A stretch of DNA of 64,000 nucleotides from Alphaproteobacteria bacterium (GCA_965228345.1 CBDDHH010000003.1:181806-245805), one strand, 5' to 3'; positions 7,334 to 62,955 are shown, numbered from the stretch's first letter. The notes: a model not told the origin generated them from the letters alone. Program-made: numbers and translations.

Positions 7334-7467
7334 GGGAAAGCTTAGGCACAAGAATTCGTAAAAATCACGCCCCAGGCCGAAAAAAATCTCTCTTGTGGCA
7401 GCTGGGTCCGTGTCCACAGCACGGGTTTCGATTTTGGACCCTGGCCCTGTAGTATCTGCGGTCATAA

Positions 7468-7810
7468 CCTGTAGTATCTGCGGTCATAAAAAGTGACTTT
7501 TTTATGACCGTTTCGCGTCTCACGGCAGAAACGCGATGCGTTTCGGCTTTTAGGGATTGCGGTCTCACCTCGCTCGCTACGCTCGCTCAGCCCGACTTGG
7601 GGTTGCGGTTTCTACTCGCTCGCTCAGCCCGACCGCGCGACGGGGCCTTCGCTTATACCCTTAGGCGCGTTTGCGCTGATCTCGGGGCCGCGTGTTTTGT
7701 GCGCGGGCGTTCCCTGCGCCCTTCGGGCTTGGAGCCCGCTTGGGTGGGGGCCGCCGTCGCGGCCCTACACCAGCGAATATAAGAGTCACTTGTAATTGCC
7801 GCTGGTATAA
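7468..7810 (+). repeat. Mosaic intergenic repeat, copy R1 (long form, forward)
   Basis: Modules in order: GGTCATAAAAAGTGAC...ATGACC hairpin, GTCTCACGGCAGAAACGCgatGCGTTTCG, GCGGTCTCACCTCGCTCGC...CAGCCCGACCGCGCGACGGGGCC (partly duplicated), TTCGCTTATACCC, CTCGGGGCCGC, GCGCGGGCGTTCCCTGCGCCCTTCGGGCTTGGAGCCC, GGGGGCCGCcGTCGCGGCCC, and the terminal hairpin ACACCAGCG...CGCTGGTAT. Matches 12 other loci in the window. Confidence 0.9.
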
Positions 7811-8152
7811 GGCACCAACCCGCGCTATGTTCTTTTAATGTTCAAAAAAAATTCTTTTTATGTTCATAAAAGGTGTTGACCTGAGGGCAACCTGGGTCTA
7901 GGGACTTTTCTATTGGTAGGAATTGCGTCCAGAGGTGTCGTTTGTGAGCGGATTGCTCAATCTAAGCAGGGTCTTTCTTGGTCCCAGAATCAGAACATAG
8001 GTTTTCGATAGTGCGACGGGTGCCGATGGAGAGAGTGAAGGCTATCCCCTCAAACTTTGCCCGCCTCCCCTCCGGGTGGGGAATTAGAGCGTGCGGTGGC
8101 CCCCTCTTCGGAGTGGCGTTCTGGGGTGAAACCTGCCACTTGAGCGGAGTTT

Positions 8153-8265
8153 AAGTCGATTGGAACAATCGACGCTGGGAACATCCGCGCCAACAAAAGC
8201 CTAAAGCCATGCAACCTATTCAAGACAAAGGCGAATGGCTTAAGGTGCGACGGGCACCTCAAGGG
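8153..8265 (+). repeat. G-element copy G1 (full, forward), about 40-90 nt upstream of terS
   Basis: AAGTCGATTGGAACAATCGACGCTGGGAACATCCGCGCCAACAAAAGCC, followed by ...ACAAAGGCGAATGGCTTAAGGTGCGACGGGCACCTCAAGG. The first half recurs at 35412, 38428 (rc) and 39568. The second half recurs at 34505 (rc) and 38345 (rc). Confidence 0.7.
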
Positions 8266-8350
8266 TTAGAAATATGGTAGGCCAAAGTGCCGGCGAATCA
8301 TTTTGACCTCCCGTTGGCTTTCCCAACTCAAGACACACACGGATGGCTTT

Positions 8351-8734
8351 ATGAAAAATCTCTGTGAGCGGCAGGAGAAATTCTGCCAAGCCTTGGTCAG
8401 CGGCATGAGCGCGACCCAGGCTTACATCAAGGCTGGTTATAGCCCCAAGGGCGCCAACACTTGTGCAGCTAAGCTTCGCAAACACCCATATGTCGCGGCG
8501 CGGCTTGCGGCCCTGAGGGCGGAAAATGCCCATGCCAGCCAAGCCGAGCGTCGCGACTTGCTGGCCCATCTTGAGTGGGTCATGGAAGTGGCCAAGGAGC
8601 AGGGGGCTCTGGGCGACATGATCCGCGCCGTGACCCAGTACTCGAAGATGTGCGGCTATGATGCGCCTGCTAAGGTTGAGGCGGATGTGACTGTTCAGCG
8701 GATTGCACGGACCATTGTTGACCCCCGCAAGTGA
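8351..8734 (+). CDS. Terminase small subunit (P27/Terminase_2-like)
   Basis: The N-terminus MKNLCERQEKFCQALVSGMSATQAYIKAGYSPKGANTCAAKLRKHPYVAARL is the typical HTH region of small terminases. It lies immediately upstream of terL and overlaps it. The start was chosen at the internal ATG 8351; the ORF is open from 8303. Confidence 0.65.
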   Translation: MKNLCERQEKFCQALVSGMSATQAYIKAGYSPKGANTCAAKLRKHPYVAARLAALRAENAHASQAERRDLLAHLEWVMEVAKEQGALGDMIRAVTQYSKMCGYDAPAKVEADVTVQRIARTIVDPRK

Positions 8735-10019
8735 GCCTGGGCTCGACATTCAGACGGCTCGGGTTTTTTTGCCTTTGCTGGAGCCTGCTCGCTACAAGGC
8801 CGCTTACGGCGGGCGCGGGTCGGGTAAGTCGCATTTCTTTGGCGAATTGGCGGTTGAAGAGGCCTTGCGGTTTCCTGGCGAGTGCGGTGAGGGCTTGGCC
8901 TTGGTCTGTGTTCGGGAGGTGCAAAAGAGCCTCAAGGATTCAGCCAAGCGGTTGATTGAGGGGAAGATCCGCGCCTTTGGGCTCGGTGAGCCGCAGGGGT
9001 TTAGGGTTTGGAACGACCGCATCGAGTTGCCCAAGGGTGGGCAGATCATCTTTCAAGGGATGCAGGATCACACGGCGGAGTCCGTCAAGTCGCTTGAGGG
9101 GTTTCATCGGGCCTGGGTTGAGGAAGCGCAGACGCTTTCGGTGACTTCGCTGGAGTTGTTGCGGCCGACCATTCGTGCGCCTGGCTCGGAGTTGTGGTTT
9201 AGCTGGAACCCGAGGCGCAAGGCTGACCCCGTGGACGCCATGCTGCGCGGGGAGACTTTGCCGACCGGCGCGGTGGTGGTGCGGGCCAATTGGGACGACA
9301 ACCCTTGGTTCCCCGATACGCTCGACCAGGAGCGCCAAGATTGCTTGCGCGATGCGCCTGAGATGTATGAGCATATCTGGGAAGGGGGTTATGCGACCGT
9401 GCGCTCGGGGGCTTACTATCAGCGTGATGTGGTCAAGGCGCGGCAGGATGGGCGCCTTGGGGTGGTGACGCTGGATCCTTTGCTGCCGATTTATGCCTTT
9501 TGGGACATCGGCGTGTCCGACGCGACCGCCATCGTGGTGGCGCAGTTTGTGGGCTCGGCGCTCAAGGTGCTGGACTATTATGAGGCCACTGGCCAGCCGC
9601 TTTCGGCGCATCTGAATTGGTTGCGGCAAGCGGGCTATGGGGCGGCCAAGTGTTACTTGCCCCACGACGCTGATCAGCGCGACAAGGTGACGGCCATTCG
9701 GTTTGAGGACCATGTGCGCGCGGCGGGCTTTGCGGTGCAGACCGTGGCCAATCAGGGCAAGGGCGCGGCTTTGAAGCGGGTTGAGACCGCGCGGCGGCTG
9801 TGGCCGTCGATTTGGATCGATGAAGGCAAGGCGGGCGGGCTGATCGACGCCTTGGCCTGGTACCATGAGCGCTGGGACGACAATCGCAACATTGGCCTGG
9901 GGCCGAACCACGATTGGGCCAGCCATGGGGCCGATGCCTTTGGCCTCATGTGCGTGGCGCACGAACCGCCCAAGAGTGGGCGCAGGATTAAGCAAAGGGA
10001 GGTGCCTGTAATCGTATGA
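8703..10019 (+). CDS. Terminase large subunit (PBSX family)
   Basis: Walker A motif YGGRGSGKSHFF about 40 aa from the N-terminus; 438 aa; ATGA overlap with the portal gene. The start codon is uncertain (TTG 8703 or a nearby TTG). Confidence 0.85.
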   Translation: MHGPLLTPASEPGLDIQTARVFLPLLEPARYKAAYGGRGSGKSHFFGELAVEEALRFPGECGEGLALVCVREVQKSLKDSAKRLIEGKIRAFGLGEPQGFRVWNDRIELPKGGQIIFQGMQDHTAESVKSLEGFHRAWVEEAQTLSVTSLELLRPTIRAPGSELWFSWNPRRKADPVDAMLRGETLPTGAVVVRANWDDNPWFPDTLDQERQDCLRDAPEMYEHIWEGGYATVRSGAYYQRDVVKARQDGRLGVVTLDPLLPIYAFWDIGVSDATAIVVAQFVGSALKVLDYYEATGQPLSAHLNWLRQAGYGAAKCYLPHDADQRDKVTAIRFEDHVRAAGFAVQTVANQGKGAALKRVETARRLWPSIWIDEGKAGGLIDALAWYHERWDDNRNIGLGPNHDWASHGADAFGLMCVAHEPPKSGRRIKQREVPVIV

Positions 10020-12517
10020 GTGACATCGACCTAAGCGACGACGTGCAGCTTGCCAGCCATGTGGCGCAGTTGATTGACGGGTGTGAGAAGCATGCCGACG
10101 ATCAGGAGAAGTCGCGCCAGCCGGCGCTGGAGTACTATGACGGTATCATGACCGATACGCCCTTTGAGGCGGGGCGGACGGGGGTTGTGTCGCACGATTT
10201 GCGCGCGGCCATTAAGAAGATCATGCCGACGATCATGCGCACCTTGCTGTCGGGCGATAAGATCGTGGAGTTTGAGCCGGCGGGGCCTGGGCCTGACAAG
10301 GAACTACAAGCCCAGCAAGCGACCGACTATATGAACCATGTGGTTGTGCCCGAAGCGGGCGTTGAGGGGGCGCTTTATGACGCCATTTTTGACGCGCTGG
10401 TCGTCAAGACGGGCATTTTGAAGTGGCGGGCTTACAATCGGCGCGAAGCGACGGTCCAGCAGTACACGAGCCAGAGCGACGCGCAGTTGCTGGGGCTGGG
10501 GGGTGAGGACGGCGTTGAGATTGCCGACCTCGTGAGCGAGCCCGAGACCGACGCCGTGGCCCTGGCCGAGAATCCTGCGGCCATGCGCCATAGTTTCACT
10601 TTGCGGCGGGTGGTCGATCAGGTGGACGTGCGCCTTGAGGCCCTCCCGCGCGGGTCGTTCCTGATCCATCCCACCGCCGATAGCATCGAGGAGAGCCCGA
10701 TTGTTGGGGAGCGGCAGGTTGTCACGCGCTCCGAGTTGGTCAGCCGTGGCTACGACCGCGATTTGGTGGCGAGTTTGGCGGCCTATGCGGGCCGTGACCA
10801 TGAAGAGAGCGACAACCTGGCGCGCAAGGGTGAGGACTGGTCCGACGAGCGGATGCAGACGGCGGCGGCCATGGAAGAGGTCTTGCTCCACGAGGTCTAT
10901 GTGCGGCTTGACTTGGACGGCGACGGCATAGCGGAGTTGCACAAGGTGTGCCTGGCCGAAGGGTCGAGCGAAGAAGGCGCGGGACCTGTGGTGCTGGACC
11001 GCGAGCCTGTTGCTGAGGCGCCCTATGCCAAGGTGATCGCTGAACGCGAGGCGCATCAGTTTGAAGGGCGCTCGCTGGCCGAGGACGTGGTGCCGATTCA
11101 GAAGATCAAGACGGGGTTGGTGCGGCAAACGCTGGATAATTTGGTTTGGGCCAACAATCCGACGCCCGTGGTCGATGGCGGGGCTTTGACGACGCAGGGC
11201 ATTGAGGCCATGCAGAACCCGTCGTTTGGCAAGATCGTTGAGGCCGAGGCGGGGCGGGCCAAGGATGCGGTGCAGTTTTTGACCGTGCCCTTTGTCGGTG
11301 AGAAGTCCTTTGGCATGTTGCAGTACCTGGACGAAGAATTGCGCGAACGCACGGGCGTCACCGACCAGTCGGGCGGGCTGGATCCCGAAGCGTTTCAGAA
11401 CATGACCGCGACCTCGGTGCAGTTGATGGCCGAGAGCGGCATTGCCCAGGCGGAGATGATCGTGCGCTCGCTGAGCCGTGGGATTCGCAAGGCTTTCAAG
11501 GGCTTATTGCGGCTGGTTATTGCGCATTCTGACCGTGAGCGGGCGGTTCGGCTGCGCGGCGAGTGGATCGACTACGACCCCAGGCACTGGGATGTCGATA
11601 TGGACTGTGTGGTCAATGTCGGACTTGGCGCAGGATCGAAGGAGCGGGATCTGGCGGTTTTGCAAATGGTCCATGGGTTGCAGGAGAAGCTGCTGGCGGC
11701 TTTCGGACCTGACAACCCCTATGTGAAGCCCGAGCAGGTCTTTAACGTTTTGGACAAGATCACGGAGACGGCGGGCTTTCCCGATGTGAAGCCCTACTTC
11801 ACGCGGCCTGACCCGCAGGAAGTGCAGGCGCGGCTCCAGGCCGAAGCGCAGAAGCCGAGCGAGCATGATGAGAAGGTGCAGCTTGAGCAGATGAAGGCCC
11901 AAGCCAAGGCGCAGGCGGACATGGCTAAGGCCGAGATTGAGGCGCGGTTCAAGCGCATGGAGATGGACCATCAGATTCAGCTGGAGCGGATCAAGGCCGA
12001 ACAGCAGGCTGCCGCCGCTGCGGCCAAAGAAGAAGCGCAGGCGCGGTGGAACAGCAAAGAGCAGGAATTTAAGGCGCAGCTGGACGCCGCGACTGCTGAA
12101 CGCGACCTGGCCTTGAAACGCGAACAGATGGCGGCCGATACGGCCCTAAGGCGCGAGCAGATCGCCGCCGACGAGCGGCAGAACGCGCTCAACCAATCGG
12201 TGAAGATGCGGATCGAAGCGGCCAAGCTACCGCCCGAGATGCAAGGCGGGCTTGGGGGCTTTGCCGATCAGTTGGATGCCAGCGTGAACGCTCGGCCGAT
12301 TTTGAGCGATATAGCGGCGATTAAGGACAGTTTAGCGGCGATCACGGAGGCCTTGACCAGGGCCGAGACCGAAAAGGCCGCGCCGAGGCAGATCCTGCGC
12401 GACGAAGCGGGTCAGATCATCGGGGCGCAAGTGGTGATGCCCGATGGGACGACCATCGTCAAAGAATTGCAGCGCGATGAACACGGCAACGCCGTTGGGT
12501 CGCGGGTTCTCCACTAG
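10016..12517 (+). CDS. Portal protein (P22 gp1-like) with a long C-terminal coiled-coil extension
   Basis: 833 aa, directly after terL. The N-terminal region (ALEYYDG...GRTGVVSHDLRAAIKKIMPTIMRTLL) is portal-like. The last ~230 aa are A/E/K/Q-rich heptad-like sequence. Confidence 0.75.
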   Translation: MSDIDLSDDVQLASHVAQLIDGCEKHADDQEKSRQPALEYYDGIMTDTPFEAGRTGVVSHDLRAAIKKIMPTIMRTLLSGDKIVEFEPAGPGPDKELQAQQATDYMNHVVVPEAGVEGALYDAIFDALVVKTGILKWRAYNRREATVQQYTSQSDAQLLGLGGEDGVEIADLVSEPETDAVALAENPAAMRHSFTLRRVVDQVDVRLEALPRGSFLIHPTADSIEESPIVGERQVVTRSELVSRGYDRDLVASLAAYAGRDHEESDNLARKGEDWSDERMQTAAAMEEVLLHEVYVRLDLDGDGIAELHKVCLAEGSSEEGAGPVVLDREPVAEAPYAKVIAEREAHQFEGRSLAEDVVPIQKIKTGLVRQTLDNLVWANNPTPVVDGGALTTQGIEAMQNPSFGKIVEAEAGRAKDAVQFLTVPFVGEKSFGMLQYLDEELRERTGVTDQSGGLDPEAFQNMTATSVQLMAESGIAQAEMIVRSLSRGIRKAFKGLLRLVIAHSDRERAVRLRGEWIDYDPRHWDVDMDCVVNVGLGAGSKERDLAVLQMVHGLQEKLLAAFGPDNPYVKPEQVFNVLDKITETAGFPDVKPYFTRPDPQEVQARLQAEAQKPSEHDEKVQLEQMKAQAKAQADMAKAEIEARFKRMEMDHQIQLERIKAEQQAAAAAAKEEAQARWNSKEQEFKAQLDAATAERDLALKREQMAADTALRREQIAADERQNALNQSVKMRIEAAKLPPEMQGGLGGFADQLDASVNARPILSDIAAIKDSLAAITEALTRAETEKAAPRQILRDEAGQIIGAQVVMPDGTTIVKELQRDEHGNAVGSRVLH

Positions 12518-12542
12518 GGGCTGAACGAGGGCAGGCAGAGCC

Positions 12543-12824
12543 ATGGCAACAAAGAACACGGTCGCGCCTGCGGTCAAGACGGGCGACATCATCCAATACA
12601 ACGGCGACAATGTCACGAACATCACCGAGGACAACAGCCTTGTTTATCCGATTTATTTTTCTGTGAGTGCCGGGCCTGCCCCGACGCCAACCGAGGAAGA
12701 GCCCGAGGTGGCAGAGCCTGGCGATGAGGACTCAGACCTGCCCGCCTATCTGCAAGCGACCCTAGAGATCACGGAAACCGCCGAGATCACTGAAATCACC
12801 GAAGTCGAAGAAATCCAAGTTTAG
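12543..12824 (+). CDS. Hypothetical acidic phage protein with EIT(E) micro-repeats
   Basis: 93-aa ORF, co-oriented with its neighbours. C-terminus ATLEITETAEITEITEVEEIQV. Confidence 0.4.
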   Translation: MATKNTVAPAVKTGDIIQYNGDNVTNITEDNSLVYPIYFSVSAGPAPTPTEEEPEVAEPGDEDSDLPAYLQATLEITETAEITEITEVEEIQV

Positions 12825-12839
12825 AAAAGAGGAGAAGTC

Positions 12840-13817
12840 ATGGCCTTTACATCGCGCAAGACGCAAATCGAAGAAGCAATCATTCAGGTCAACGCGCAAA
12901 TGACCGCGATCACGGGCGCGACAAGCGGGCCGCTATCGAGCGACCAAGCCGCCGCCTACGAGCGCCTCAGGGTGACGCATAGCCACTATATCGACCTTCA
13001 CGTCACCGAGGAAGAAAAAGAGGCCGCTGCCGCCGCACAAGCCGCCTATGATGCCATCGATTCAACTGCGGTCTGGACTAAGACTTATGGCGCGGTCGTG
13101 GGTGTCTTTTCAGCCTATCACGGCTATTCAGGTACGGGCGCAACGTCGCAAGTTGGCACCAACCAAAGCGAACAGGCCAGCCACCGCTTTCTAACCATGG
13201 CGGCTTGTGGTGAGGCGTGGGCCGATGAGGATTTATCGTCCAAGCTCAACTTCCAATACACGCAAATGGAAACCAATTGGTTCACGGTGGATCGGCCCTT
13301 CTGGTATTTGGGCGAAGGCTACAACGAGGACGACCAAAGCAGCAGCACCTACACCTATCCGCGCCGCCCGCACTCGTTCGTGCCGCTACGCAATTCGACC
13401 GATGCCGATATTGTGCTAAACGTGGTTTATGAGGCCAGCAGCTATTCCAGCAATTATTCGAATATGGGGTTCAATACGTGGACGCCCGACCTTACGAACA
13501 CCGAATTAGCGACCCATAGCGGCGATGTGGCGGTGACGTTTCAGAACGTCTTTCAATACTCCAGCAACACAGCCCGTCGCGCCTCAAATCAGAATATCAC
13601 CATCCCTGCGGGCAAGTCGATCATCCTGCATTACTGGTCATCTGGCAAGTATCATGCGGATGTGACCAATCACTACACCATGAACTACGTCCACGGGCTC
13701 GACATATCGGCGATTGAGACCATCGATGGGCTTGAGTGCGACAAGCAGATCATGACCAACTTCGGCAAGAATTACAAAAAGGTGGGCAGTTTGTTCCTGC
13801 CCGAGCCTACTGAATAA
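12840..13817 (+). CDS. Hypothetical protein; helical N-terminus and a Ser/Tyr/Asn/Thr-rich C-terminal domain
   Basis: 325-aa ORF with GAGGAG 6 nt upstream of the ATG. Its composition clearly differs from the neighbouring phage ORFs. Confidence 0.5.
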   Translation: MAFTSRKTQIEEAIIQVNAQMTAITGATSGPLSSDQAAAYERLRVTHSHYIDLHVTEEEKEAAAAAQAAYDAIDSTAVWTKTYGAVVGVFSAYHGYSGTGATSQVGTNQSEQASHRFLTMAACGEAWADEDLSSKLNFQYTQMETNWFTVDRPFWYLGEGYNEDDQSSSTYTYPRRPHSFVPLRNSTDADIVLNVVYEASSYSSNYSNMGFNTWTPDLTNTELATHSGDVAVTFQNVFQYSSNTARRASNQNITIPAGKSIILHYWSSGKYHADVTNHYTMNYVHGLDISAIETIDGLECDKQIMTNFGKNYKKVGSLFLPEPTE

Positions 13818-13828
13818 GGAGCCTCCCC

Positions 13829-14083
13829 ATGAGTGACAAAAAAGCAACAGTGCCGACGCGGTGGATTGAGTTTGACGCGCAAGGCAACCAGGCGGGCGTC
13901 GGGATTGATCGCGTTCCTGGGACTTATGAGGCCCCTGCGGGCTATGACCCTGCTGCGGACTTTGCGCGGCTGGTTGACGGCAAGGTGGTCCTGGAGCCGA
14001 ATTGGACGGCGGAGCAGTACGAGGCGCACGAAGAAACCAAGCGCCTAGAGCGGATTGCCAAAGCGGCCAAAGAGGCCGCCTAA
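13829..14083 (+). CDS. Hypothetical phage protein
   Basis: 84-aa ORF with GGAG upstream, in the co-oriented block. Confidence 0.4.
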   Translation: MSDKKATVPTRWIEFDAQGNQAGVGIDRVPGTYEAPAGYDPAADFARLVDGKVVLEPNWTAEQYEAHEETKRLERIAKAAKEAA

Positions 14084-14091
14084 GCTAGGCC

Positions 14092-14631
14092 ATGGCGACT
14101 TATGACGTCACCCTGACGCTGGACAAGTCCGAGATCGGCAAGACGGTCACGGCCCAGCTCTTGCTTGCCGACGCTGACGAAGCGGCGATTGAGGTGACGG
14201 GCTTCACGGCTATGTCGGCGGCGGGGCGCTATGGGGCCAACCTGCCCAGCGACCTAGCGGCGGGCGAGTACCAGATACTTTACTACGCCGACGACGTGTT
14301 CAGGGTTGATGACACCTTGACCTGGGACGGGTCTGCTATCGTTGAAGGCGGCGGCGAGCCCGTCACTCTGGCCGATGCGTCGGTCGATGCGATTGTCGAG
14401 GCCGTTGAGCGCGATGAAGGGCTTGTGAAGGGGTTGGATGCCAAGGTTGAGGCCTTGCCCGACGCTGACGCCACCGCTGAGGCTGTTTGGACCAAAGAGA
14501 CGCGCACCGTTACGGGCACCCAAGACGACGCGGCTTTGCCCGCCAATGTCAAGTATATCAATGACATAGGCGTCGGTGGGTCGGGCGTTGAGGGCGATAC
14601 TTGGGGGCCGGCGCCTAGCGAAAGCGCTTAA
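14092..14631 (+). CDS. Hypothetical phage structural protein
   Basis: 179-aa ORF, tightly packed. No family recognised. Confidence 0.45.
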   Translation: MATYDVTLTLDKSEIGKTVTAQLLLADADEAAIEVTGFTAMSAAGRYGANLPSDLAAGEYQILYYADDVFRVDDTLTWDGSAIVEGGGEPVTLADASVDAIVEAVERDEGLVKGLDAKVEALPDADATAEAVWTKETRTVTGTQDDAALPANVKYINDIGVGGSGVEGDTWGPAPSESA

Positions 14632-14634
14632 GCC

Positions 14635-15141
14635 GTGACGGCGGTTGTTGACGCCTTCGGCGGGGCCTTTGGCGCGGCTTTTGGGCCTGCCTTTGGCTGG
14701 TCGATCGACGAGCCCGAGACCGCCACCAAGCCGACCCATAGCGGGCGCGTTTGGGTTGGTGGGCAGTGGGAGGACGAGGACGATGACCCGCTGGCCACCA
14801 TCGAGGATGCGCTCGACTATCTGAACCGCAAGCCCAAGCTGACCAAGGCGGCGCGGGCCAAGATCAAGGCCAAGATCGAAGCGGCGCGCAAGGTGGCGGA
14901 GAAAGCCGCCGCCGAACAAGCGGCCCAGCAAGCGCGCATGACGGCGCAGGCGGCCCGTGAGAGTGCCGCAAGCGCCTTGCTGCGGGATCTGCCGCCTTTG
15001 CCCGATTTGGACGCGCAGCGGGTGAGTTTGGTGCGCTTGCGGGCTTGGTTTGTCGAGTTACGGGCGCGGATCAGCGCTTTTGAAGATCACAAGCGCGCCG
15101 AGGACGAGGCTGCCATATTTTTGCTGCTGATGGATGACTAG
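14635..15141 (+). CDS. Hypothetical phage protein
   Basis: 168-aa ORF with a GTG start, 3 nt after the preceding stop. Confidence 0.4.
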   Translation: MTAVVDAFGGAFGAAFGPAFGWSIDEPETATKPTHSGRVWVGGQWEDEDDDPLATIEDALDYLNRKPKLTKAARAKIKAKIEAARKVAEKAAAEQAAQQARMTAQAARESAASALLRDLPPLPDLDAQRVSLVRLRAWFVELRARISAFEDHKRAEDEAAIFLLLMDD

Positions 15142-15370
15142 ACTTAGCCAAGGGGAGGCGCTGGCCCTCCTGCACAATACCACGCTCATGGCGCTCCTGG
15201 ACCAGATGGAGGCCGATGCGCTGAACCTGGCCGTGAACGCCAGTGCCGATGAAGATTCCCGCCGTTTGGTCGCCTGCACGCGCGCCAAGGCGTTTCGAGA
15301 TTTGAGACGGAAGTTGACGACCCTTTCCGAGGGCAAGACCAATCCCGCCTCAGATACGCGCGACGGATAG
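15134..15370 (+). CDS. Hypothetical phage protein
   Basis: 78-aa ORF overlapping the previous ORF by 8 nt. Confidence 0.4.
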   Translation: MTRLSQGEALALLHNTTLMALLDQMEADALNLAVNASADEDSRRLVACTRAKAFRDLRRKLTTLSEGKTNPASDTRDG

Positions 15371-15408
15371 CCGTCCCGCGTTACCAACCTTTCACAAAGG
15401 ATTGAGAC

Positions 15409-16335
15409 ATGACCCTAGACCCTGAAACGGGCGAGGCTATGGACGATCAAGACTTAGGTCTTGAGGACTTTGCAGACTTGCCCGACGAAGCGGACACGCC
15501 CGACGAAGAGCAACCCGAAGAGGACGAAGGCGCCGATTTGGCGGCGGATCAAGACGATCAGCCAGAGGCCGATGAAGACGACCCCGACGCGGACTTGAGC
15601 GAAGGCGACAAGGTGCTGGTCACTTTGAGCGACGGCGATCAAGTCAAGCTGGAAGAACTGAAGGCAGGCTATTTCCGTCAAAAGGACTATACGCACAAAA
15701 CTGAGGAACTGGCGCGCGAGCGCGAGCAGATCGGTGAGATCCGCAAGGCTTACGACCAGCAGACTCAAGCCCTCCAAGCCGCGCAAAATGGACTTGCGCA
15801 CTATATGCAGGGGCTTGTTCCTCCCGAACCCGATCTATCCCTGGCCCAGACCAACCCTGGGCAGTACCAATACCAGCAAGCCATGCGTCAACAGGCCATG
15901 GTCGAGTTGCAACGGGTACTCCAAGCCAGTCAACAGACGCAGGCGCAAGCCACGCAGGCCGACGCGGCCGAGCTGGCCCGCTACAAGTCCGACGAGGAAG
16001 CACGGCTGATCCAAGCCATGCCAAGCCTCAAGGACCCTGGGCGGCGCAGCAAATTCCACGCGGATGTGCGGCAAGCGGCCTTGGACTTTGGCTTTAGCGA
16101 GGCAGAGATCGACACGACCCTTGACCACCGCATCCTGCGGCTGGTGCATTTTGCCCGCCACGGCAAGCAAGCCTTGGACAACCGATCCAGGGCCGCGCGT
16201 CGTGCTGGCGAGAAGCCAAGCAAGGGCAAGCGGGCACCCGGGACGGCAGCAGCCCCCCAGGCGCGCAGCAAGGCCATGGAGCGCCTCACTAAATCTGGCG
16301 ACATTGAGGACGCGGTTGCCGCGATGCTCAACTAG
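15409..16335 (+). CDS. Putative scaffolding protein
   Basis: 308 aa, immediately upstream of the capsid gene. Extremely acidic N-terminus (D/E/P-rich), Q/A-rich helical middle, basic C-terminus. Confidence 0.5.
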   Translation: MTLDPETGEAMDDQDLGLEDFADLPDEADTPDEEQPEEDEGADLAADQDDQPEADEDDPDADLSEGDKVLVTLSDGDQVKLEELKAGYFRQKDYTHKTEELAREREQIGEIRKAYDQQTQALQAAQNGLAHYMQGLVPPEPDLSLAQTNPGQYQYQQAMRQQAMVELQRVLQASQQTQAQATQADAAELARYKSDEEARLIQAMPSLKDPGRRSKFHADVRQAALDFGFSEAEIDTTLDHRILRLVHFARHGKQALDNRSRAARRAGEKPSKGKRAPGTAAAPQARSKAMERLTKSGDIEDAVAAMLN

Positions 16336-16364
16336 CCACTCTCTAACCTCGAAAGGGTAAAACT

Positions 16365-17354
16365 ATGGCTGTTTCAACAGGAGCCTTTAAGACCGGTTCA
16401 GCGAAAGTGAACCGCGAAGAACTCGCCAACGTCGTCGATGCCGTCCAACGGTCGGACACGCCGATCTATTCCATGATCGCCAATTCCACGGCCAAGTCGG
16501 TCTTTCCTGAATGGCCTGTGCGGGACTTCGATGCCCCCGCGCAGAACATCCAGTCAGAAGGGCGCGACTATGCCTTTGAGTCGGACAATCCGTCAAAGCG
16601 CATGGGCAACCATACGCAGATCTTCGCCAAGAACGGCAAGTTCACCAACACCCAAGAAACGGTCGATAATGCCGCCAAGTCCGAACAGATGGCGCGCGAC
16701 AAGATCGAAAAGGGTTTGGCCTTGCGCACCGATGTGGAATTTTCCATCGTCACGAACAACGCCTCCCTCGGCGGCGATGATCGTGTGTCGGGGTCTCTAT
16801 CGACCTGGGCCGAGACCAACGTCTCACGCGGGGCAGGCGGGGCCAATGGTGGCTACAGCGAGACCACCAAGGTCACGACCGCGCCGACCGACGGAACGCA
16901 GCGGGCCTTGAGCAAGGACCTGATCGACGATCTGCTGCAAGCGGGCTATTCGTCGGGCGCCAAGCTGACGCATATGTTCTTTAGCCCCTACGGCAAGCGG
17001 GTCTTTGCCAGCCTGATGGAAGACCCTGGCGTTGCGCAGTTCCGCTACGCGGCCAAGGGCGGCAAGAATACCATCGTTGCCACGGCAGAGATTTACCTCG
17101 GCCCCCTCGGGCAAGTCACGGTGCATCCCAACCACGTCATGGGCGCCAGCGCCACGCAAGCGCGCAACGCCTTTGTGCTGGATACCAAGCGGGTCAAGTG
17201 GAAGTGGCTGCGCGCCATCTACGAGGACAAGGACCTGGCCAAGACGGGGGACTATCGGCAGTTCGTCCTGCAAGGCGAAGGCTGCCTGTGCGTTGAGAAC
17301 GAAAAGGCGGTCGGGGTGATCGCGGATATCTATGGGCTGACGGCGACGACCTAA
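16365..17354 (+). CDS. Major capsid protein (HK97-fold, SU10/DUF5309-like by recollection)
   Basis: 329 aa, follows the scaffold gene, and is followed by a strong terminator. The family call rests on recalled sequence character only. Confidence 0.65.
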   Translation: MAVSTGAFKTGSAKVNREELANVVDAVQRSDTPIYSMIANSTAKSVFPEWPVRDFDAPAQNIQSEGRDYAFESDNPSKRMGNHTQIFAKNGKFTNTQETVDNAAKSEQMARDKIEKGLALRTDVEFSIVTNNASLGGDDRVSGSLSTWAETNVSRGAGGANGGYSETTKVTTAPTDGTQRALSKDLIDDLLQAGYSSGAKLTHMFFSPYGKRVFASLMEDPGVAQFRYAAKGGKNTIVATAEIYLGPLGQVTVHPNHVMGASATQARNAFVLDTKRVKWKWLRAIYEDKDLAKTGDYRQFVLQGEGCLCVENEKAVGVIADIYGLTATT

Positions 17355-17373
17355 GAGGCTGACCAACTGGGAA

Positions 17374-17397
17374 GGGGGCTTAGCGGCCCCCTTTTTT
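17374..17397 (+). terminator. Rho-independent terminator after the capsid gene
   Basis: GGGGGC-ttagcg-GCCCCC followed by TTTTTT. Confidence 0.8.
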
Positions 17398-17495
17398 GTA
17401 ACATTTGCACTTGGGGCTTGAAATATGAGGGTCGTATCCTTAGTGAAAGAGGTCCGTGAGGGGTTTGGACTTTCTTTGAGTTGAGGTGATGACGG

Positions 17496-18436: not shown

Positions 18437-18500
18437 GGCCAGGCTTGGCCGTCGCGCGAACTTTCGAATTCTATCCGCTGACAAGCTAGACCGAAACTTG

Positions 18501-18522
18501 AGGGGCCAATGGCCCCTTTTTT
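18501..18522 (+). terminator. Rho-independent terminator after the PanA/partner pair
   Basis: AGGGGCC-aat-GGCCCCT followed by TTTTT. Confidence 0.75.
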
Positions 18523-18546
18523 ATTGCTGAGTCTTGGGGGGGTGGG

Positions 18547-19647: not shown

Positions 19648-19664
19648 GCATCGCCGTGTTTTTT

Positions 19665-19700: not shown

Positions 19701-19733
19701 TTGATTTCCCCAAAAAAAACGAAAGGAATCCCC

Positions 19734-24617: not shown

Positions 24618-25030
24618 TGGGCACAAAATCCTTTGGCGGCGGCCAAGGCGGGGGCTACATCTTCGGCGGCAACACGGGCAAGTCTTACGAGGACGTGCAG
24701 CGGATGCGCCAACAGGCCAGCCAGATTTCACCGCTTCAAAACGGAATGCCGCGCAACGTCGGCGAAGGCATCGCCAGCATCGGGCAAGCACTGATGGTGC
24801 GCCACCTTGAGGGCAAGGCCAAGAAAGCCGAAGAAGCAGGGCGAAAGGAAGCTACAAACGCATTTCAGCACATCCTATCGCAGCCGAGGGGGCAATGGGA
24901 CATGGCCCAAGTCGGGGCCTTGTCCGACAACGGCTATTTGAGCGACGCGCAGCGCGGGGCCATGGCGACGTTGTTTCAGCAGGACCTGGAGCGGCGGCTT
25001 GGGGCTTATATCAGCGGCGATTTAAAATGA
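24614..25030 (+). CDS. Hypothetical phage protein; the last 7 codons and the stop are supplied by repeat copy R2
   Basis: 138 aa with an ATGA overlap. The C-terminal YISGDLK* is encoded by the A-type hairpin module (TATATCAGCGGCGATTTAAAATGA...). Confidence 0.4.
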   Translation: MMGTKSFGGGQGGGYIFGGNTGKSYEDVQRMRQQASQISPLQNGMPRNVGEGIASIGQALMVRHLEGKAKKAEEAGRKEATNAFQHILSQPRGQWDMAQVGALSDNGYLSDAQRGAMATLFQQDLERRLGAYISGDLK

Positions 25031-25348
25031 CTCTTTTATTCGCTGGTATAAGGGCCGCGACTGCGGCCCCCGTAGCGGGCTCCAAGCCCGAAGGGCGCAG
25101 GGAACGCCCGCGCCAAAAACACTTGGGCTCCAAGCCCGAAGGGCGCAGGGAACGCCCGCGCCAAAAACAAGCGGCCCCGAGAATAGCTAAGAAAGCGCCT
25201 CGGAGTATAAGCGAAGGCCCCGTCGCGCGGTCGGGCTGAGCGAGCGGTGCAAGCGAGGTGAGACCGCATCAAACAGCCGAAACGCGAAGCGTTTCTGCCG
25301 TGAGACAAAACTCTGCTGAAAATGTCAATTCTTAGCGGAGTTGGTATA
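25007..25348 (-). repeat. Mosaic intergenic repeat, copy R2 (long form, reverse) with an internal 48-bp tandem duplication
   Basis: Its reverse complement aligns module by module with R1, R7 and R11. GGGCTCCAAGCCCGAAGGGCGCAGGGAACGCCCGCGCCAAAAACA occurs twice, at 25077 and 25125. Confidence 0.9.
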
Positions 25349-25650
25349 AGGCGTTGCGAGGACGGCGTTCCTACCTGGCTGAGCTTCCGCGGATAGTGTG
25401 ACCCTTTAATGAAGTCGATCGTGCGTCCACCCATGGCTCGACGAGTCAAGGTTTCGCCGCGTTGGTTTTATGGGTTGGAACGGTATTTGTTTGGTCGTGA
25501 TTGTCTTTGATGAGAGAACTCGTTATTACGAGCCTGATGAAATCGCCCTGCGGCGAACTTTTTATTTGCAGGGGCGTCATGACGTTGTAGGGGCAGAACG
25601 ACCGAGCTTTGTGGCTTTCTAATTCCCACTTGTACAGATTTCCCAGATTC

Positions 25651-27336: not shown

Positions 27337-27524
27337 TATGCCAGTTCACCTTAAAACAGACTCTTTATGAACTGGTATAGGGCCGCGACTGCGGCCCCCG
27401 CAGCGGCCCCGAGAACAGCTAAGAAAGCGCCTCGGGGTATAAGCGAAGGGGAGGCGAAACGCGCCGCGTTTCTGCCGTGAGACAAAACTCCGCTAAAAAT
27501 GTCAATTTTTAGCGGAGTTGGTAT
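27337..27524 (-). repeat. Mosaic intergenic repeat, copy R3 (short form, reverse)
   Basis: Contains the T-type hairpin, GGGCCGCGACTGCGGCCC, CCCCGAG...CTCGGGG, GAAACGCgccGCGTTTC, CTGCCGTGAGAC and the CTCCGCTAAAAA-TGTCAA-TTTTTAGCGGAG hairpin. It lacks two modules found in the long form. Confidence 0.9.
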
Positions 27525-32102: not shown

Positions 32103-32103
32103 A

Positions 32104-34562: not shown

Positions 34563-34758
34563 CCTTATACCAAGGGTTATAATACCGACGGTCATAAAAA
34601 GTGACCTTTTCATGACCGTTTCGTGTCTCACGGCAGAAACGCGTTGCGTTTCGCCTCCGACGGGACGTTCGTTCGTACCCCGAGGCGCTTTCTTTGCCGA
34701 TCTCGGGGCCGCTTGTTTTTGGCGCGGGCGTTCCCTGCGCCCTTCGGGCTTGGAGCCT
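34563..34758 (+). repeat. Mosaic intergenic repeat, copy R4 (forward, right end truncated)
   Basis: Starts CCTTATACCAAGGGTTATAATACCGACGGTCATAAAAAGTGACC..., continues through GTCTCACGGCAGAAACGC and ends in ...CTTCGGGCTTGGAGCC. It lacks the GGGCCGCAGTCGCGGCCC and terminal hairpin modules. Confidence 0.85.
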
Positions 34759-35480: not shown

Positions 35481-35714
35481 AATACCAACTCCGATAAAAA
35501 TTGACCTTTTTATTGGAGTTTTGTCTCACGGCAGAAACGCTTCGCGTTTCGGCTTTTGGGGTTGCGGTCTCACCTCGCTTGCTCAGCCTGACCGCTGGAC
35601 GGGGCCTCCGCTTATACCCCGAGGCGTGTGTCCGCTGTTCTCGGGGCCGCTGCGGGGGCCGCAGTCGCGACCCTATACCAGTTCATAAGGAATTTTTTTA
35701 AGGAGAACTGGTAT
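35481..35714 (+). repeat. Mosaic intergenic repeat, copy R5 (forward)
   Basis: AATACCAACTCCGATAAAAATTGACC...GTCTCACGGCAGAAACGCTTCGCGTTTCG...GCGGTCTCACCTCGC...CCCCGAGG...CTCGGGGCCGC...GGGGGCCGCAGTCGCGACCC, then the T-type hairpin at 35675-35714. Confidence 0.9.
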
Positions 35715-36384: not shown

Positions 36385-36424
36385 TACCAGTTCATAAAGA
36401 GTCTGTTTTAAGGAGAACTGGTAC
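36384..36424 (+). repeat. Solo T-type hairpin module (R5b) exactly filling the gap between the convergent HNH and lpxL-like genes
   Basis: ATACCAGTTCATAAAGAGTCTGTTTTAAGGAGAACTGGTAC has a 10-bp stem. The 44-nt string GGACTAATACCAG...GAACTGG is identical to 55208-55251. Confidence 0.85.
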
Positions 36425-39557: not shown

Positions 39558-39567
39558 AGCGAACTCC

Positions 39568-39615: not shown

Positions 39616-39618
39616 ACT

Positions 39619-39857
39619 GATACCAACGGCGAAAAAAGTTGACACTTTTTCAGCCGTTTTATGTCTCACGGCAGAAACGCTTCGCGTTTCGCCGCCCCTT
39701 CGCTTATACCCCGAGGCGCTTTCTTAGCTCATCTCGGGGCCGCGTGTTTTTGGCGCGGGCGTTCCCTGCGCCCTTCGGGCTTGGAGCCCGCTACGGGGGC
39801 CGCAGTCGCGGCCCTACACCAGTTCATAAGGAGTCTGTTTTAAGGTGAACTGGTATA
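39619..39857 (+). repeat. Mosaic intergenic repeat, copy R6 (forward)
   Basis: GATACCAACGGCGAAAAAAGTTGACACTTTTTCAGCCGT...GTCTCACGGCAGAAACGCTTCGCGTTTCGCC...full right half...T-type hairpin. Confidence 0.9.
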
Positions 39858-45809: not shown

Positions 45810-46073
45810 ATACCATCGGCGGTAGCTTTTGATACCAACTCCGCTAAAAATTGACATTTTCAGCGGAGTTTTGTCTCACGGCAGAAACGCTCCGCGTTTC
45901 GCCTGTTTGATGCGGTCTCACCTCGCTCGCGCCGCTCGCTCAGCCTTACCGCGCGACGGGGCCTTCGCTTATACCCCGAGGCGCTTTCTTAGCTTGTCTC
46001 GGGGCCGCTACGGGGGCCGCAGTCGCGGCTCTATACCAGTTTATAAAGAGTCTGTTTTAAGGAGAACTGGTAT
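45810..46073 (+). repeat. Mosaic intergenic repeat, copy R7 (long form, forward) between convergent genes
   Basis: A degenerate ATACCATCGGCGG fragment, then GATACCAACTCCGCTAAAAATTGACATTTTCAGCGGAG...all modules except the GGCGCGGGCGTTCC/GGGCTTGGAGCCC block...T-type hairpin. Confidence 0.9.
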
Positions 46074-52200: not shown

Positions 52201-52386
52201 ATACCAGCGGCGATTTAAAATGACTCTTGCTGGTATAAGGGCCGCGACTGCGGCCCCTGTAGCGGCCCCGAGAATAGCGCGAAAGCGCCTCGGGGTATGA
52301 GCGAAGGGGAGGCGAAACGCGAAGCGTTTCTGACGTGAGACACGAAACGGTCATGAAAAGGTCACTTTTTATGACCGTTGGTATAT
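52201..52386 (-). repeat. Mosaic intergenic repeat, copy R8 (short form, reverse) inside the ABC operon
   Basis: A-type hairpin (with a deletion), GGGCCGCGACTGCGGCCC, CCCCGAG..CTCGGGG, GAAACGCgaaGCGTTTC, and the GGTCAT...ATGACC hairpin. Confidence 0.9.
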
Positions 52387-52411: not shown

Positions 52412-52438
52412 GGGGGCGGGCTGGTCCCGCCCCCTTTT
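52412..52438 (+). terminator. Intercistronic terminator-like hairpin between the binding-protein and permease genes
   Basis: GGGGGCGGG-ctggt-CCCGCCCCC followed by TTTT, 20 nt upstream of the permease ATG. Confidence 0.6.
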
Positions 52439-55214: not shown

Positions 55215-55496
55215 TACCAGTTCATAAAGAGTCTGTTTTAAGGAGAACTGGCATAATACCAACGGTCATAAAAAGTGACCTTTTCATGACCGTTTCGTGT
55301 CTCACAGCAGAAACGCGATGAGTTTCGCCTCCCCTTCGCTTATACCCCGAGGCGCGTGTCCGCCGATCTCGGGGCCGCGTGTTTGTGGCGCGGGCGTTCC
55401 CTGCGCCCTTCGGGCTTGGAGCCCGCTACGGGGGCCGCAGTCGCGGCCCTTATACCAGCGAACATAAGAGTCATCTATAAATGCCGCTGGTATAAG
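55214..55496 (+). repeat. Mosaic intergenic repeat, copy R9 (forward; an extra T-type hairpin fused to the left of a full element)
   Basis: T hairpin at 55214-55254, followed by AATACCAACGGTCATAAAAAGTGACC...full module series...A-type hairpin ending CCGCTGGTATAAG. Confidence 0.9.
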
Positions 55497-56811: not shown

Positions 56812-57000
56812 TCCCAGTTCTCCTTAAAACAGGCTCTTTATGAACTGGTATAGGGCCGCGACTGCGGCCCCCGTAGCGGCCCCGAGAATCGCGCGAAAGC
56901 GCCTCGGGGTATCAGCGAAGGGGCGGCGAAACGCATCGCGTTTCTGCCGTGAGACATAAAGCGGCTAAAAAAGTGTCAACTTTTTTGGCCGTTGGTATAA
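56811..57000 (-). repeat. Mosaic intergenic repeat, copy R10 (short form, reverse) between convergent genes
   Basis: T hairpin (degenerate first arm), GGGCCGCGACTGCGGCCC, CCCCGAG..CTCGGGG, GAAACGCatcGCGTTTC, CTGCCGTGAGAC, and the GCGGCTAAAAAAGTGTCAACTTTTTTGGCCGT hairpin. Confidence 0.9.
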
Positions 57001-61104: not shown

Positions 61105-61392
61105 GAGACCAACGGTCATAAAAAGTGACCTTTTTATGACCGTTTCGTGTCTCACGGCAGAAACGCTTCGCGTTTCGCCTGTTTGATGCGGTCTCACCTC
61201 GCTCGCTCAGCCCGACCGCGCGACGGGGCCTTCGCTTATACCCCGAGGCGCGTGTCCGCCGATCTCTGGGCCGTTTGTTTTTGGCGCGGGCGTTCCCTGC
61301 GCCCTTTGGGCTTGGAGCCCGCTTCGGGGGCCGCAGTCGCGGCCCTTATCCCAGCGATCATAAGAGTCATTTATAATTGCCGCTGGCATTAG
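61105..61392 (+). repeat. Mosaic intergenic repeat, copy R11 (long form, forward)
   Basis: GAGACCAACGGTCATAAAAAGTGACCTTTTTATGACC...all modules...A-type hairpin ending CCGCTGGCATTAG. It abuts the MFS stop codon. Confidence 0.9.
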
Positions 61393-62624
61393 CCCCCCTT
61401 CTTCTGTCGCTGTACGACGAAGAACAGAACCACGATGAGGGTTGCGCAAACCAGGAAGGGAGCGCCCGGCAGGCGGAAGGCGTCGGCGTCGGTGGGTGTC
61501 GCCCAAATGAAGGTTCCGACCATGAGGAAGGGGGACAGGGTCGAGGCCATGGCGGCGAGGGAGGTGTTAATGCCCTGCAGTTCTCCCTGAACGTCTCTGC
61601 CGACCGCGTTGGACAAGAGCGATGTGATCATAGGGTTGACCATGACCGAGAGGGCCGAGAAGGGAACCGTTAGGTAGATATGGATGCCGTTTTGGGCAAA
61701 ACCCAACATCACAAAACAGATGAGAGCCGCGGCAAGGCCGAGTGTGAGGGTTCTCTCGGACCCCAAGCGCTGAACCAGGGGGCCAAGCAGGACGGCCTGG
61801 ACAAAGGCAAAGGCGCCGCCGACCACGGCCAACGAGATGCCCACATCTTGCCGGTCCCAGCCCGCGACGGCGCGGCCGTAGTAGGACCAAACTGCGGGAT
61901 AAACTGTAAAGACAAGGCTGAATAGAAAGGCCGCCAGCAGCCAGCCCTGAATTTCGGGACGGCGACGAATTTGTCCGAGTGCGCCGAGGGGATTGGCCCG
62001 CGACCATGCAAAAGGGCGGCGGTCTTCGGGGACCAAGGTTTCGGTGAAAAAGACGTAGCCAAAGGCGAAGTTTGCAAAGGCCAAGATCGCGGCGGCAAAG
62101 ATCGGCGCGCGCGCGTCCAAGCCTGCCAAGACGGCGCCGATGGCGGGCCCCAAAACAAAGCCGATGCCAAAACCCGCGCCGACGAACCCAAAGTTGCGCG
62201 CCTTGTTGGATGGTGTTGAGACATCGGCGACGGCGGCGTAGGCGGTGCTGTAGGTTGCCCCTGCAACGCCCGCCAAAATGCGCCCCAAAAACAGTACCCA
62301 AACGGCGCCAGCGAAGCCGAGTATCAGATAGTCGATACCAAGAGCGAATAGGGATACCAGCAAGACCCGACGCCGCCCAAACCGATCCGATAAGTTGCCG
62401 ACCGTTGGCCCTACTAGGAACTGCATGCCCATATAGACCGCCATGAGCCACATGCCGATGCCCGCAATTTCCCCGATTGGGTTGGCCTCCTTAGTTTCTT
62501 GCAAGATGACAGGGTCGAGGCCTTGCAGCTCGGCCAAGATATCGGGCAAGACGGGCATGAGTAAGCCGATGCCCATGGCATCGACAATGACGACCCCGAC
62601 GGCGAAGAAGAGTGTTCTGTTCAT
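61389..62624 (-). CDS. MFS transporter (TCR/Tet-like, 12 TM)
   Basis: 411 aa. GNLSDRFGRRRV (MFS motif A) and the typical TM pattern. Confidence 0.8.
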   Translation of the reverse strand: MNRTLFFAVGVVIVDAMGIGLLMPVLPDILAELQGLDPVILQETKEANPIGEIAGIGMWLMAVYMGMQFLVGPTVGNLSDRFGRRRVLLVSLFALGIDYLILGFAGAVWVLFLGRILAGVAGATYSTAYAAVADVSTPSNKARNFGFVGAGFGIGFVLGPAIGAVLAGLDARAPIFAAAILAFANFAFGYVFFTETLVPEDRRPFAWSRANPLGALGQIRRRPEIQGWLLAAFLFSLVFTVYPAVWSYYGRAVAGWDRQDVGISLAVVGGAFAFVQAVLLGPLVQRLGSERTLTLGLAAALICFVMLGFAQNGIHIYLTVPFSALSVMVNPMITSLLSNAVGRDVQGELQGINTSLAAMASTLSPFLMVGTFIWATPTDADAFRLPGAPFLVCATLIVVLFFVVQRQKKGG

Positions 62625-62780
62625 AAGGCCCCTACCTCAAAGCTGTTCAAGCGACCCCATAAAAGCGCAACTGGCTCTATGCAAAGGCGAACTCATACCA
62701 TCTCCGCGAAGATTTGGCCCTTTCGACCGTGGTGGGCGCAAAGTCGCGCGAATTAAAAATTCATACCAGTTTTCCTTAAG

Positions 62781-62898
62781 GAGACCTCAGCATAATTCGA
62801 CTTCGGATCAAAGGACCACAATATGTGGTGTCATAAAAGCAAAGTTAGCACCCTATCTTGCTATCAACTTTCGATCTTCTGATTTATGCTGAGGTCTC
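62781..62898. repeat. Small palindromic element: perfect 15-bp inverted repeats 88 bp apart
   Basis: GAGACCTCAGCATAA (62781-62795) and TTATGCTGAGGTCTC (62884-62898). An internal hairpin ACCACA-atat-GTGGTG lies near 62814-62829. TTATGCTGAGGTC also occurs at 27539-27551, next to R3. Confidence 0.6.
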
Positions 62899-62902
62899 TA
62901 AG

Positions 62903-62955
62903 AATGACTCTTATACGGGCTCCGCTAAAAACTGACATTTTCAGCGGAGTTGGTA
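62903..62955 (-). repeat. Mosaic repeat fragment R12 (A-module remnant plus CTCCGCT hairpin)
   Basis: AATGACTCTTATA, followed by CTCCGCTAAAAACTGACATTTTCAGCGGAGTTGGTAT. Confidence 0.8.

Follow-up and report, generated by a model that had tools for sequence, protein, structure and literature searches.

A 64,000-nucleotide stretch of an Alphaproteobacteria bacterium (GCA_965228345.1, CBDDHH010000003.1:181806-245805), here called the window and numbered from its first letter, carries a dense family of modular hairpin repeats in the gaps between its genes. [quoted passage not shown] The family is a new one of a well-known kind, in an uncultured alphaproteobacterium. All features by which prokaryotic MITEs are recognized were found: the elements are small (below ~600 bp) and non-coding, have inverted ends and a target duplication, and occur in many copies, and both an autonomous partner and pairs of filled and empty sites could be identified.

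The modules were derived from repeat finding, a MAFFT alignment of 11 copies and one hidden Markov model (HMM) per module. In the window, the motif GTCTCACGGCAGAAACGC was found 11 times when up to 3 mismatches were allowed (0.04 expected) and GGGGGCCGCAGTCGCGGCCC occurs 10 times (0.04 expected). The 11 copies share the invariable module order A-B-C(n)-D-E(n)-F-G. Module A is a left hairpin (TACCAAC-stem-AAAAAKTGACMTTTT-stem), module B reads TGTCTCACGGCAGAAACGC-nnn-GCGTTTCGCC with the core motifs GTCTCACGGCAGAAACGC-nnn-GCGTTTCG, module D is CCCCGAGG-loop-CTCGGGG, module F is GGCCGCAGTCGCGGCC and module G is a right hairpin with two variants, G1 and G2. Modules C (GCGGTCTCACCTCGCTCGC..TCAGCCCGACCGC) and E (GGCGCGGGCGTTCCCTGCGCC plus GGGCTTGGAGCCC) are optional, and E is present zero to two times per window copy. 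Every module listed in an initial annotation of the window was recovered in the same order. Its count of 13 copies agrees with the 13 loci observed here, which comprise 11 copies with the core (R1-R11), two solo G1 hairpins (R5b and one that abuts R9) and the scrambled R12.

The elements fall into short (184-187 bp), medium (233-242 bp) and long (283-340 bp) forms, none with coding capacity, and their lengths differ by whole non-coding modules. As previously described, long and short copies lie in tandem, convergent and divergent gaps, in either orientation, and one copy (R8) was found inside an operon. Together, the module HMMs account for 2,760 bp (4.3%) of the window sequence; the earlier figure of about 5% holds if R12 and degenerate ends are counted. 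No tRNA genes were found in the window. Over ~40 nt, the left end (TACCAACGG..AAAAAGTTGAC) is repeated imperfectly and in inverted form at the right end, which reads TACCAGCGG..AAAATGACTC as reverse complement; in this stretch TACCAACGG..AAAAAGTGAC on the left aligns with TACCAGCGG..AAAATGAC on the right. G1 pairs likewise with a CTCCGCT variant of module A.

An exact scan of 185,579 species-representative genomes with an 18-mer from module B gave at least 63 stretches and, among the matches listed, 60 of 63 came from OZ245893.1, a 3.25-Mb chromosome named 'MAG: Alphaproteobacteria bacterium' (MAG, metagenome-assembled genome). FabD and KduI of the window are 93 and 92% identical to the OZ245893.1 proteins, whereas the next-best FabD matches reach ~60%. 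Therefore, the window genome and OZ245893.1 are regarded as sisters in a sparsely sampled lineage. A B-module pattern with 27 specified bases had no match in JGI metagenome contigs, and a full copy had none in 72,556 plasmids (blastn).

From OZ245893.1, 60 tiles of 8 kb, chosen through their module-B 18-mer matches, were analyzed. Nearly all elements in these tiles follow the order A-B-C(n)-D-E(n)-F-G, the exceptions being fused or nested composites and truncated copies, and C is present 0-5 times and E 0-3 times per element. ABDFG2 (44 copies) and ABCDFG2 (13 copies) are the most frequent forms. When a zero-truncated Poisson distribution was fitted to the exact-motif counts per 8-kb tile, the chromosome was estimated to hold ~290 exact-motif copies; the fit is applicable because the tiles are fixed, the same locus id having been obtained with another scan pattern. 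Two OZ245893.1 loci picked regardless of repeats contained ~2.4% of family sequence, compared to which the window is denser, although of the same order.

The target duplication became apparent when 46 short copies were aligned, since a T-N-A lies outside ATACCA...TGGTAT on either side. When the element is read as TACCAAC...CTGGTA, the flanking triplets are direct repeats. Identical 3-bp flanks were observed in 31 of 48 sister-genome copies with exact termini, and the flanks match in 31 of the 37 sister copies that have TNA on both sides, where base frequencies predict 28% by chance (p = 3e-12). Among the matching triplets, TCA and TTA occur 11 times each, TAA 6 times and TGA 3 times. All four middle bases are present and, because the middle base is duplicated too, a TA duplication is insufficient to explain the flanks. 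The lengths of the empty sites fit a net insertion of the element plus 3 bp. The terminal hairpin had been described as bounded by ATACCAG...CTGGTAT in two variants; the variants stand as G1 and G2, but the true ends are TACCA...TGGTA, the outer A and T being part of the TNA that is duplicated.

For the autonomous partner, a screen of all inverted-terminus pairs 0.7-3.5 kb apart for an enclosed transposase was not discriminating, since copies of the family flank almost every gene. When inverted TACCAR/YTGGTA ends were required to have identical TNA flanks and to enclose no MITE, the search led to a 1,172-bp element in OZ245893.1 (locus L041, 5490-6661), flanked by TAA on both sides. Its ends are TACCAACGGAAAAATTAAATGACC... 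and ...GAGTCGCTCATTCTTGCCGCTGGTA; the right end reads TACCAGCGGCAAGAATGAGCGACTC as reverse complement, and TACCAACGGAAAAATTAAATGACC and TACCAGCGGCAAGAATGAGCGACTC correspond to MITE modules A and G2, respectively. The element contains two overlapping open reading frames (ORFs) on the minus strand, ORF A with HTH_32/HTH_33 and ORF B with DDE_3. Both match NF033545 'IS630 family transposase' (93.9 bits at positions 3-133 and 142.9 bits at 140-297). ORF B is in the -1 frame and a run of eight A residues (A8) lies at the junction. An IS630-type transposase with the termini of the repeats, for which a search had been suggested, is therefore present in the sister genome. Searched with a 26-mer from the interior of this IS, OZ245893.1 yielded at least five copies that are 98.9-100% identical, indicating recent IS activity in that genome. 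The L041 copy itself sits within a MITE, at a TAA that has G2 on one side and F on the other. Similarity between IS and MITE is confined to their termini (12-17 nt plus the TGAC motif per end), and their interiors are unrelated. Four complete sister IS copies have TNA on both sides, and the two flanks are identical in two of the four.

Among annotated elements, those most similar to ORF B are an IS630-family IS from plasmids of Paracoccus liaowanqingii (65% identity) and ISAli3 of Azospirillum lipoferum 4B (60%). Four insertions of the Paracoccus IS have identical flanks (TCA, TTA, TAA and TAA), as do three insertions of ISAli3 (TTA, TTA and TGA). The termini of both follow TACCA[AG]C.GC...TGACTC with ~10 nt between the two motifs, and these termini and the 3-bp TNA flanks are the same as in the sister IS and the MITE. 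Since TGACTC belongs to the termini of these relatives, the AAAAA(G/T)TGAC hairpin motif of the initial annotation is the conserved inner portion of the terminal repeat of the transposase. The two relatives are also of like size to the sister IS (1,158-1,172 bp), with the DDE part 60-65% identical at the amino-acid level, and their transposase coding sequence of 1,067 nt is not a multiple of three, which is consistent with a frameshift. ISAli3 and the Paracoccus IS are autonomous and coding, whereas the window repeats are non-coding with an unrelated hairpin interior.

Three more short families of 114, 157 and 130 bp were observed, with unrelated interiors and the same TACCA...TGGTA ends and TNA flanks. 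An IS110-family element (DEDD_Tnp_IS110 plus Transposase_20) lies between two of the 130-bp TACCA-ended MITEs (L016, 5835-7170), and a second copy is found at the end of L059; its placement recalls IS110 relatives that target REP- or MITE-type palindromes. This element, which emerged from long repeats among the loci, is without inverted ends of the TACCA type and was ruled out as the mobiliser.

Comparison of the two genomes showed that insertions differ between them. Window positions 35,719-61,086 are syntenic with OZ245893.1 (~25 kb) at 81-90% nucleotide identity. For R6 and R8, clean empty sites were seen in the sister genome; R9 and R10 are missing there, the orthologous gaps holding unrelated sequence. 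Two main-family copies of the sister are without a window counterpart, one after the acyl-carrier-protein gene, between its stop codon and terminator, and one corresponding to window 50,876-51,092. The comparison of filled and empty orthologous sites, which had also been proposed, thus yielded not a single shared insertion across the 25-kb syntenic stretch, and the family must have been moving, or being lost, in both lineages since their split. Synteny stops within a few bases of R5 and at R11. The ends of synteny at two copies, the nesting of elements and the lack of shared insertions together indicate that the family is a main driver of intergenic turnover and probably drives rearrangement in this lineage. 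The three short window copies are 76-86% identical to each other, compared with a mean of 92.4% in the sister (95.3% in the core), and judged by these identities, by their mostly non-matching flanks and by their mutated terminal bases, the window copies look older. Of the earlier proposal of an actively amplified non-autonomous element, non-autonomous mobility is upheld by the TNA duplication, the empty sites and the IS with the same ends; 'actively' is borne out for the sister genome, and in the window ends and flanks have decayed.

Combining these results, the following mechanism is proposed. The ISAli3-like transposase would be made by a -1 frameshift on the A8 run, which joins the HTH part to the DDE part. 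The fused protein would bind the TACCA...TGAC ends of the MITE in trans, excise the element and re-insert it at a TNA that is duplicated in the process. The mobiliser would be the transposase of this IS or of a close relative in the window's own genome. Insertions would survive only outside genes and, because TAA and TGA stop codons are TNA targets that are regenerated by the duplication, copies would accumulate against gene ends, in 3' untranslated regions (UTRs) and in one another's flanks. Indeed, among 99 elements there are 21 whose flanking TNA is also the TAA or TGA with which the adjoining gene ends, which is compatible with a target that restores the stop, but this fraction is not clearly above what the TNA-limited choice of sites in short intergenic gaps would give. 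The G+C-rich interior (B-F) is a chain of independent hairpins without similarity to the IS, in which C varies from 0 to 5 and E from 0 to 3 copies, and the short forms may be deletions between short direct repeats; the sister short form retains the GACGGGG tail of C, and E is bounded by CCGC direct repeats.

Several observations weigh against this explanation. In the 64-kb window no transposase or IS of this clade was found. Matching flanks occur there at R9 only, and 5 of the 10 full copies have a mutated terminal base, which leaves recent mobility in this genome unsupported. In the two remaining complete sister IS copies (L163 and L161) the two flanks differ, being TAA/TTA and TCA/TGA. IS630/Tc1/mariner elements canonically duplicate TA and not TNA (PMC2170065), and the flanks of the MITE, the IS relatives and the sister IS all depart from this dinucleotide. 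TNA with symmetric ends is the simplest reading of the flanks, sequence alone being insufficient to place the cut sites. The hairpin interior, which is probably passenger DNA, is not accounted for by this explanation, and the counts of gene context given below rest on our own crude gene calls. The departure from TA does not separate the MITE from the IS, because it is common to the whole ISAli3-like clade. The window copies would be mostly old or recombined, their non-matching flanks reflecting age and recombination between copies. Within each of the L163 and L161 copies the two flanks are reverse complements, a pattern expected after inversion between two inverted copies.

Among other explanations, the one that survives best, although improbable, is that the repeat is a structured RNA or regulatory module (terminator, mRNA stabiliser or small RNA) which the host maintains at operon boundaries, with mobility being secondary. 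The repeat folds very stably (z = -6.25 for the DNA fold), and RNAalifold gives a consensus of 6-7 serial hairpins. Many copies lie between a stop codon and a terminator, as observed for R8 and for the sister copy after the acyl-carrier-protein gene, and these copies must be co-transcribed; the position of R8 in an ABC-transporter operon is like that of classical E. coli REPs. However, copies in tandem gaps are not oriented preferentially (23 sense and 30 antisense), RNAalifold gave a covariation term of -0.1 with a core that does not vary, and compensatory changes are found solely in the A and G hairpins, between subfamilies. Rfam gave no hits at the gathering score over the whole window and none at E <= 1 with the longest copy, and no insertion is conserved over the 25 kb shared by the sisters. 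Hairpins are not followed by a T-run; a terminator role was considered and rejected, since terminator-like calls within copies are limited to two small hairpins, those of the A-loop and of D, whose T tails are weak. TGAC...TATAA at the ends was likewise considered as a source of outward promoters, but a sigma-70 scan found none at any element end and a total not above that of shuffled sequences. Elements occupy 26 of 56 convergent, 12 of 49 divergent and 53 of 321 tandem gaps, a distribution that is usual for tolerated insertions, which favour the 3' ends of genes. Given the random orientation, the restriction of compensatory changes to the terminal hairpins and the empty Rfam search, an RNA or regulatory origin is unsupported, and the recruited structural or regulatory module considered in the initial annotation is not favoured.

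Spread as REP/BIME-like palindromes by a RAYT (a Y1 transposase of the IS200/IS605 type), in which the end hairpins would be REPs and the mosaic a BIME-like cluster, is very unlikely. Such an origin would account for the solo hairpins, the self-folding of each end, the conserved TACC 5' of each hairpin and the mosaic architecture, and the IS110-family element beside a related short element resembles IS110 relatives at REPs. REPs, however, make no duplication, whereas a 3-bp direct repeat surrounds the whole element here, and its ends are those of an IS630-family IS that makes the same duplication. Furthermore, the termini are TACCA without a GTAG-type tetranucleotide, and tblastn with approximate RAYT and IS608 TnpA queries gave nothing below E = 0.1 in ~0.56 Mb, which is a weak test. 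Mobilisation by an IS5-family or PIF/Harbinger-like transposase, for which TNA is the classic duplication and to which an unrelated MITE present in both genomes, with GAG... ends and a flank repeat of greater length, might add as a sign of another active transposase, is hardly credible either, as the autonomous element with the exact ends encodes an IS630-family (DDE_3, NF033545) transposase, the same TNA flanks were seen at seven insertions of its annotated relatives, and the sole other transposase noticed is of the IS110 family, although no systematic scan of these loci for IS5-family genes was made.

Going beyond the ISAli3-like MITE assignment, it is tentatively proposed, at somewhat less than even odds, that the ISAli3-like branch of IS630/Tc1/mariner cuts with a 3-nt stagger at TNA instead of a 2-nt stagger at TA, and that in one uncultured alphaproteobacterial lineage it gave rise to several families of MITEs, one of them a modular hairpin type that makes up 2-4% of the genome. 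Identical TNA flanks were found at 7 of 7 insertions of annotated relatives, at 2 of 4 complete sister IS copies and at 31 MITE copies. A literature search found no paper that reports a TNA or 3-bp duplication for IS630, although ISfinder may already record one. If this proposal is correct, TAA and TGA stop codons would be self-restoring landing pads.

The family can be compared with several known repeats. RUP of S. pneumoniae and other IS630-linked MITEs are short, non-coding, multi-copy and intergenic, with inverted ends that match an IS630-family element thought to act in trans; RUP duplicates TA. RUP-type repeats also cluster with other repeats (PMC10969869) and nest with them. The window family is like RUP in mode, being non-coding and nested with IS630-matching ends, but it differs from RUP in its TNA duplication, its greater length, its fixed series of hairpin modules and its estimated 300 or more copies, and the two have no sequence similarity. 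BOX of S. pneumoniae, organized as boxA-boxB(n)-boxC, is without clear inverted ends, duplication or known transposase; the fixed order with a variable number of internal modules is shared with the window family, without homology. REP/BIME of enterobacteria and RIME of rhizobia are intergenic mosaic palindromes in similar positions, for example between ABC-transporter binding-protein and permease genes. The former, which are tied to RAYTs, make no target duplication, whereas the window family duplicates TNA. Correia/NEMIS elements of Neisseria have a TA duplication, an IHF site and 26-bp inverted ends specific to that genus, and to our knowledge no autonomous partner of Correia is known, whereas such a partner was found for the window family, in the sister genome. 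Correia/NEMIS are MITEs with inverted ends, long and short forms and outward promoters, which are very abundant at gene boundaries and co-transcribed (PMC10969869). The window family differs from them in its TNA duplication and lack of a promoter consensus, and no sequence similarity was seen by eye. ISHsp2, an IS630-family element of Halomonas sp. ZM3, is of the frameshift type with an A-run as slippery site and is reported to make a 4-bp TTAA duplication (PMC3606827). It differs in having TTAA and not TNA, and it was captured experimentally, without described MITE derivatives.

With ~4% of the window and, by estimate, at least 2% of the sister genome belonging to one MITE family, these repeats should be masked in such genomes and not be mistaken for regulatory RNA. 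The family links a MITE to its IS630-family parent, and the 130-bp family represents an intermediate from IS to MITE with remnants of transposase coding sequence. A duplication of TNA rather than TA is documented across an IS630 clade. The points of interest are the abundance of the family and the TNA duplication of its parent clade, the latter being a mild surprise. Judging by their positions in 3' UTRs and operons, it is plausible that the copies affect mRNA stability or polarity.

Table 1. Positions and features of the individual repeat copies in the window and of the three short families with the same type of ends (L numbers, sampled loci).
Feature	Position	Strand	Composition and remarks
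R1	7446..7810	+	Long, A-B-C-C-D-E-G2; left terminus degenerate; right end CTGGTA, then TAA
R2	25006..25349	-	Longest, A-B-C-D-E-E-F-G2; two E modules 100% identical; flanks TTA/TAA; right terminus mutated to CTGATA
R3	27339..27523	-	Short, A-B-D-F-G1; right terminus mutated (CTGGCA); flanks TCA/TAA
R4	34583..34757	+	Truncated, A-B-D-E; F and G, hence the right end, missing
R5	35483..35713	+	A-B-C-D-F-G1; ends intact; flanks TAA/TGA; sister-genome synteny begins ~5 nt past right end
R5b	36385..36423	+	Solo G1 hairpin, TACCAGTTC...GAACTGGTA; left TAA is stop codon of HNH-endonuclease gene; full-length element at this site in sister genome
R6	39621..39855	+	A-B-D-E-F-G1; ends intact; sister orthologous site without R6 and adjacent 60-nt Z repeat
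R7	45833..46072	+	A-B-C-D-F-G1; apparently inserted in remnant end of another TACCA-type element (45810-45831)
R8	52202..52383	-	Short, A-B-D-F-G2; flanks TAA/TAT; empty site in sister genome
Solo G1 hairpin	55215..55253	+	Abuts R9; left TAA is KduI stop codon; middle TAA common to hairpin and R9
R9	55257..55492	+	A-B-D-E-F-G2; ends intact; TAA/TAA duplication matches; missing at sister orthologous site
R10	56812..56997	-	Short, A-B-D-F-G1; right terminus mutated (CTGGGA); different 114-bp MITE in sister gap
R11	61107..61388	+	A-B-C-D-E-F-G2; both termini mutated (GACCAAC, CTGGCA); sister synteny stops at left end
R12	62695..62960	+	Scrambled composite: degenerate A-like end, split G-type hairpin, solo A-type hairpin closed by GTTGGTA (62915-62956)
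114-bp family	L153 12820-12933; L040 5896-6009; L024 431-544		
157-bp family	L064 16065-16221		10 further full or partial matches
130-bp family	L016 5498-5628, 7184-7314		Keeps remnant of transposase C-terminal coding sequence

Further details were observed at single copies (Table 1). R8 is inserted between the stop codon of the binding-protein gene of its ABC-transporter operon and a strong terminator hairpin (52412-52434). Near the site of R7, at a distance of a few nt, an unrelated MITE of 157 bp that has the same termini is found in the sister genome. The right TTA of R11 is the stop codon of a minus-strand MFS gene, and the degenerate left end of R1 contains a 22-bp tandem duplication (CCTGTAGTATCTGCGGTCATAA twice, 7446-7489). 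The solo hairpins of 39-41 bp were considered as independently mobile 'micro-MITEs', but there are too few clean cases.

Other repeats accompany the family. A palindromic repeat Z (GCGGA..GTCGATTGGAGCAATCGAC..ATCCGC..CCAACAAA) is found at window positions 8136-8197, 35394-35455 and 39558-39619, and two of its three copies lie just upstream of a main-family left end (R5 and R6). Z and R6 together are flanked by TAA/TAA, of which the left TAA is the stop codon of a response-regulator gene. The G-type hairpin of R12 is split by an unrelated MITE of ~118 bp (62781-62898) with inverted ends GAGACCTCAGCATAA and TAAG on both flanks; it belongs to a second MITE family of ~105-118 bp, of which a half copy is present at 27539-27553. 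One copy of this family in the sister genome interrupts an IS630-family element (L161). In OZ245893.1, a short repeat, CCAATTCCCCTCCCTYGGAGGGG..GGCAGGCGAAGCCTG, occurs at two intergenic sites (L153, ~12340-12390 and ~18010-18060), one of which coincides with the end of synteny to the window.

Besides the repeats, the window contains a unidirectional phage-like head/tail block at 8303-25030 (large terminase PF04466, SU10-type portal and a Peptidase_S74 tail-fibre chaperone domain), which is free of MITEs, is bracketed by R1 and R2 and may be a prophage remnant or a gene-transfer-agent-like cluster. Positions 32000-36000 have a G+C content of 50-54% compared with ~60% elsewhere and contain FkbM methyltransferase and GtrA-like genes; therefore, this region may be an acquired glycan-modification island. 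R4 and R5 are located at its right side, where the sister synteny starts. On the minus strand, positions 1-6306 are occupied by one ORF of more than 2,100 codons that runs off the left edge of the window.

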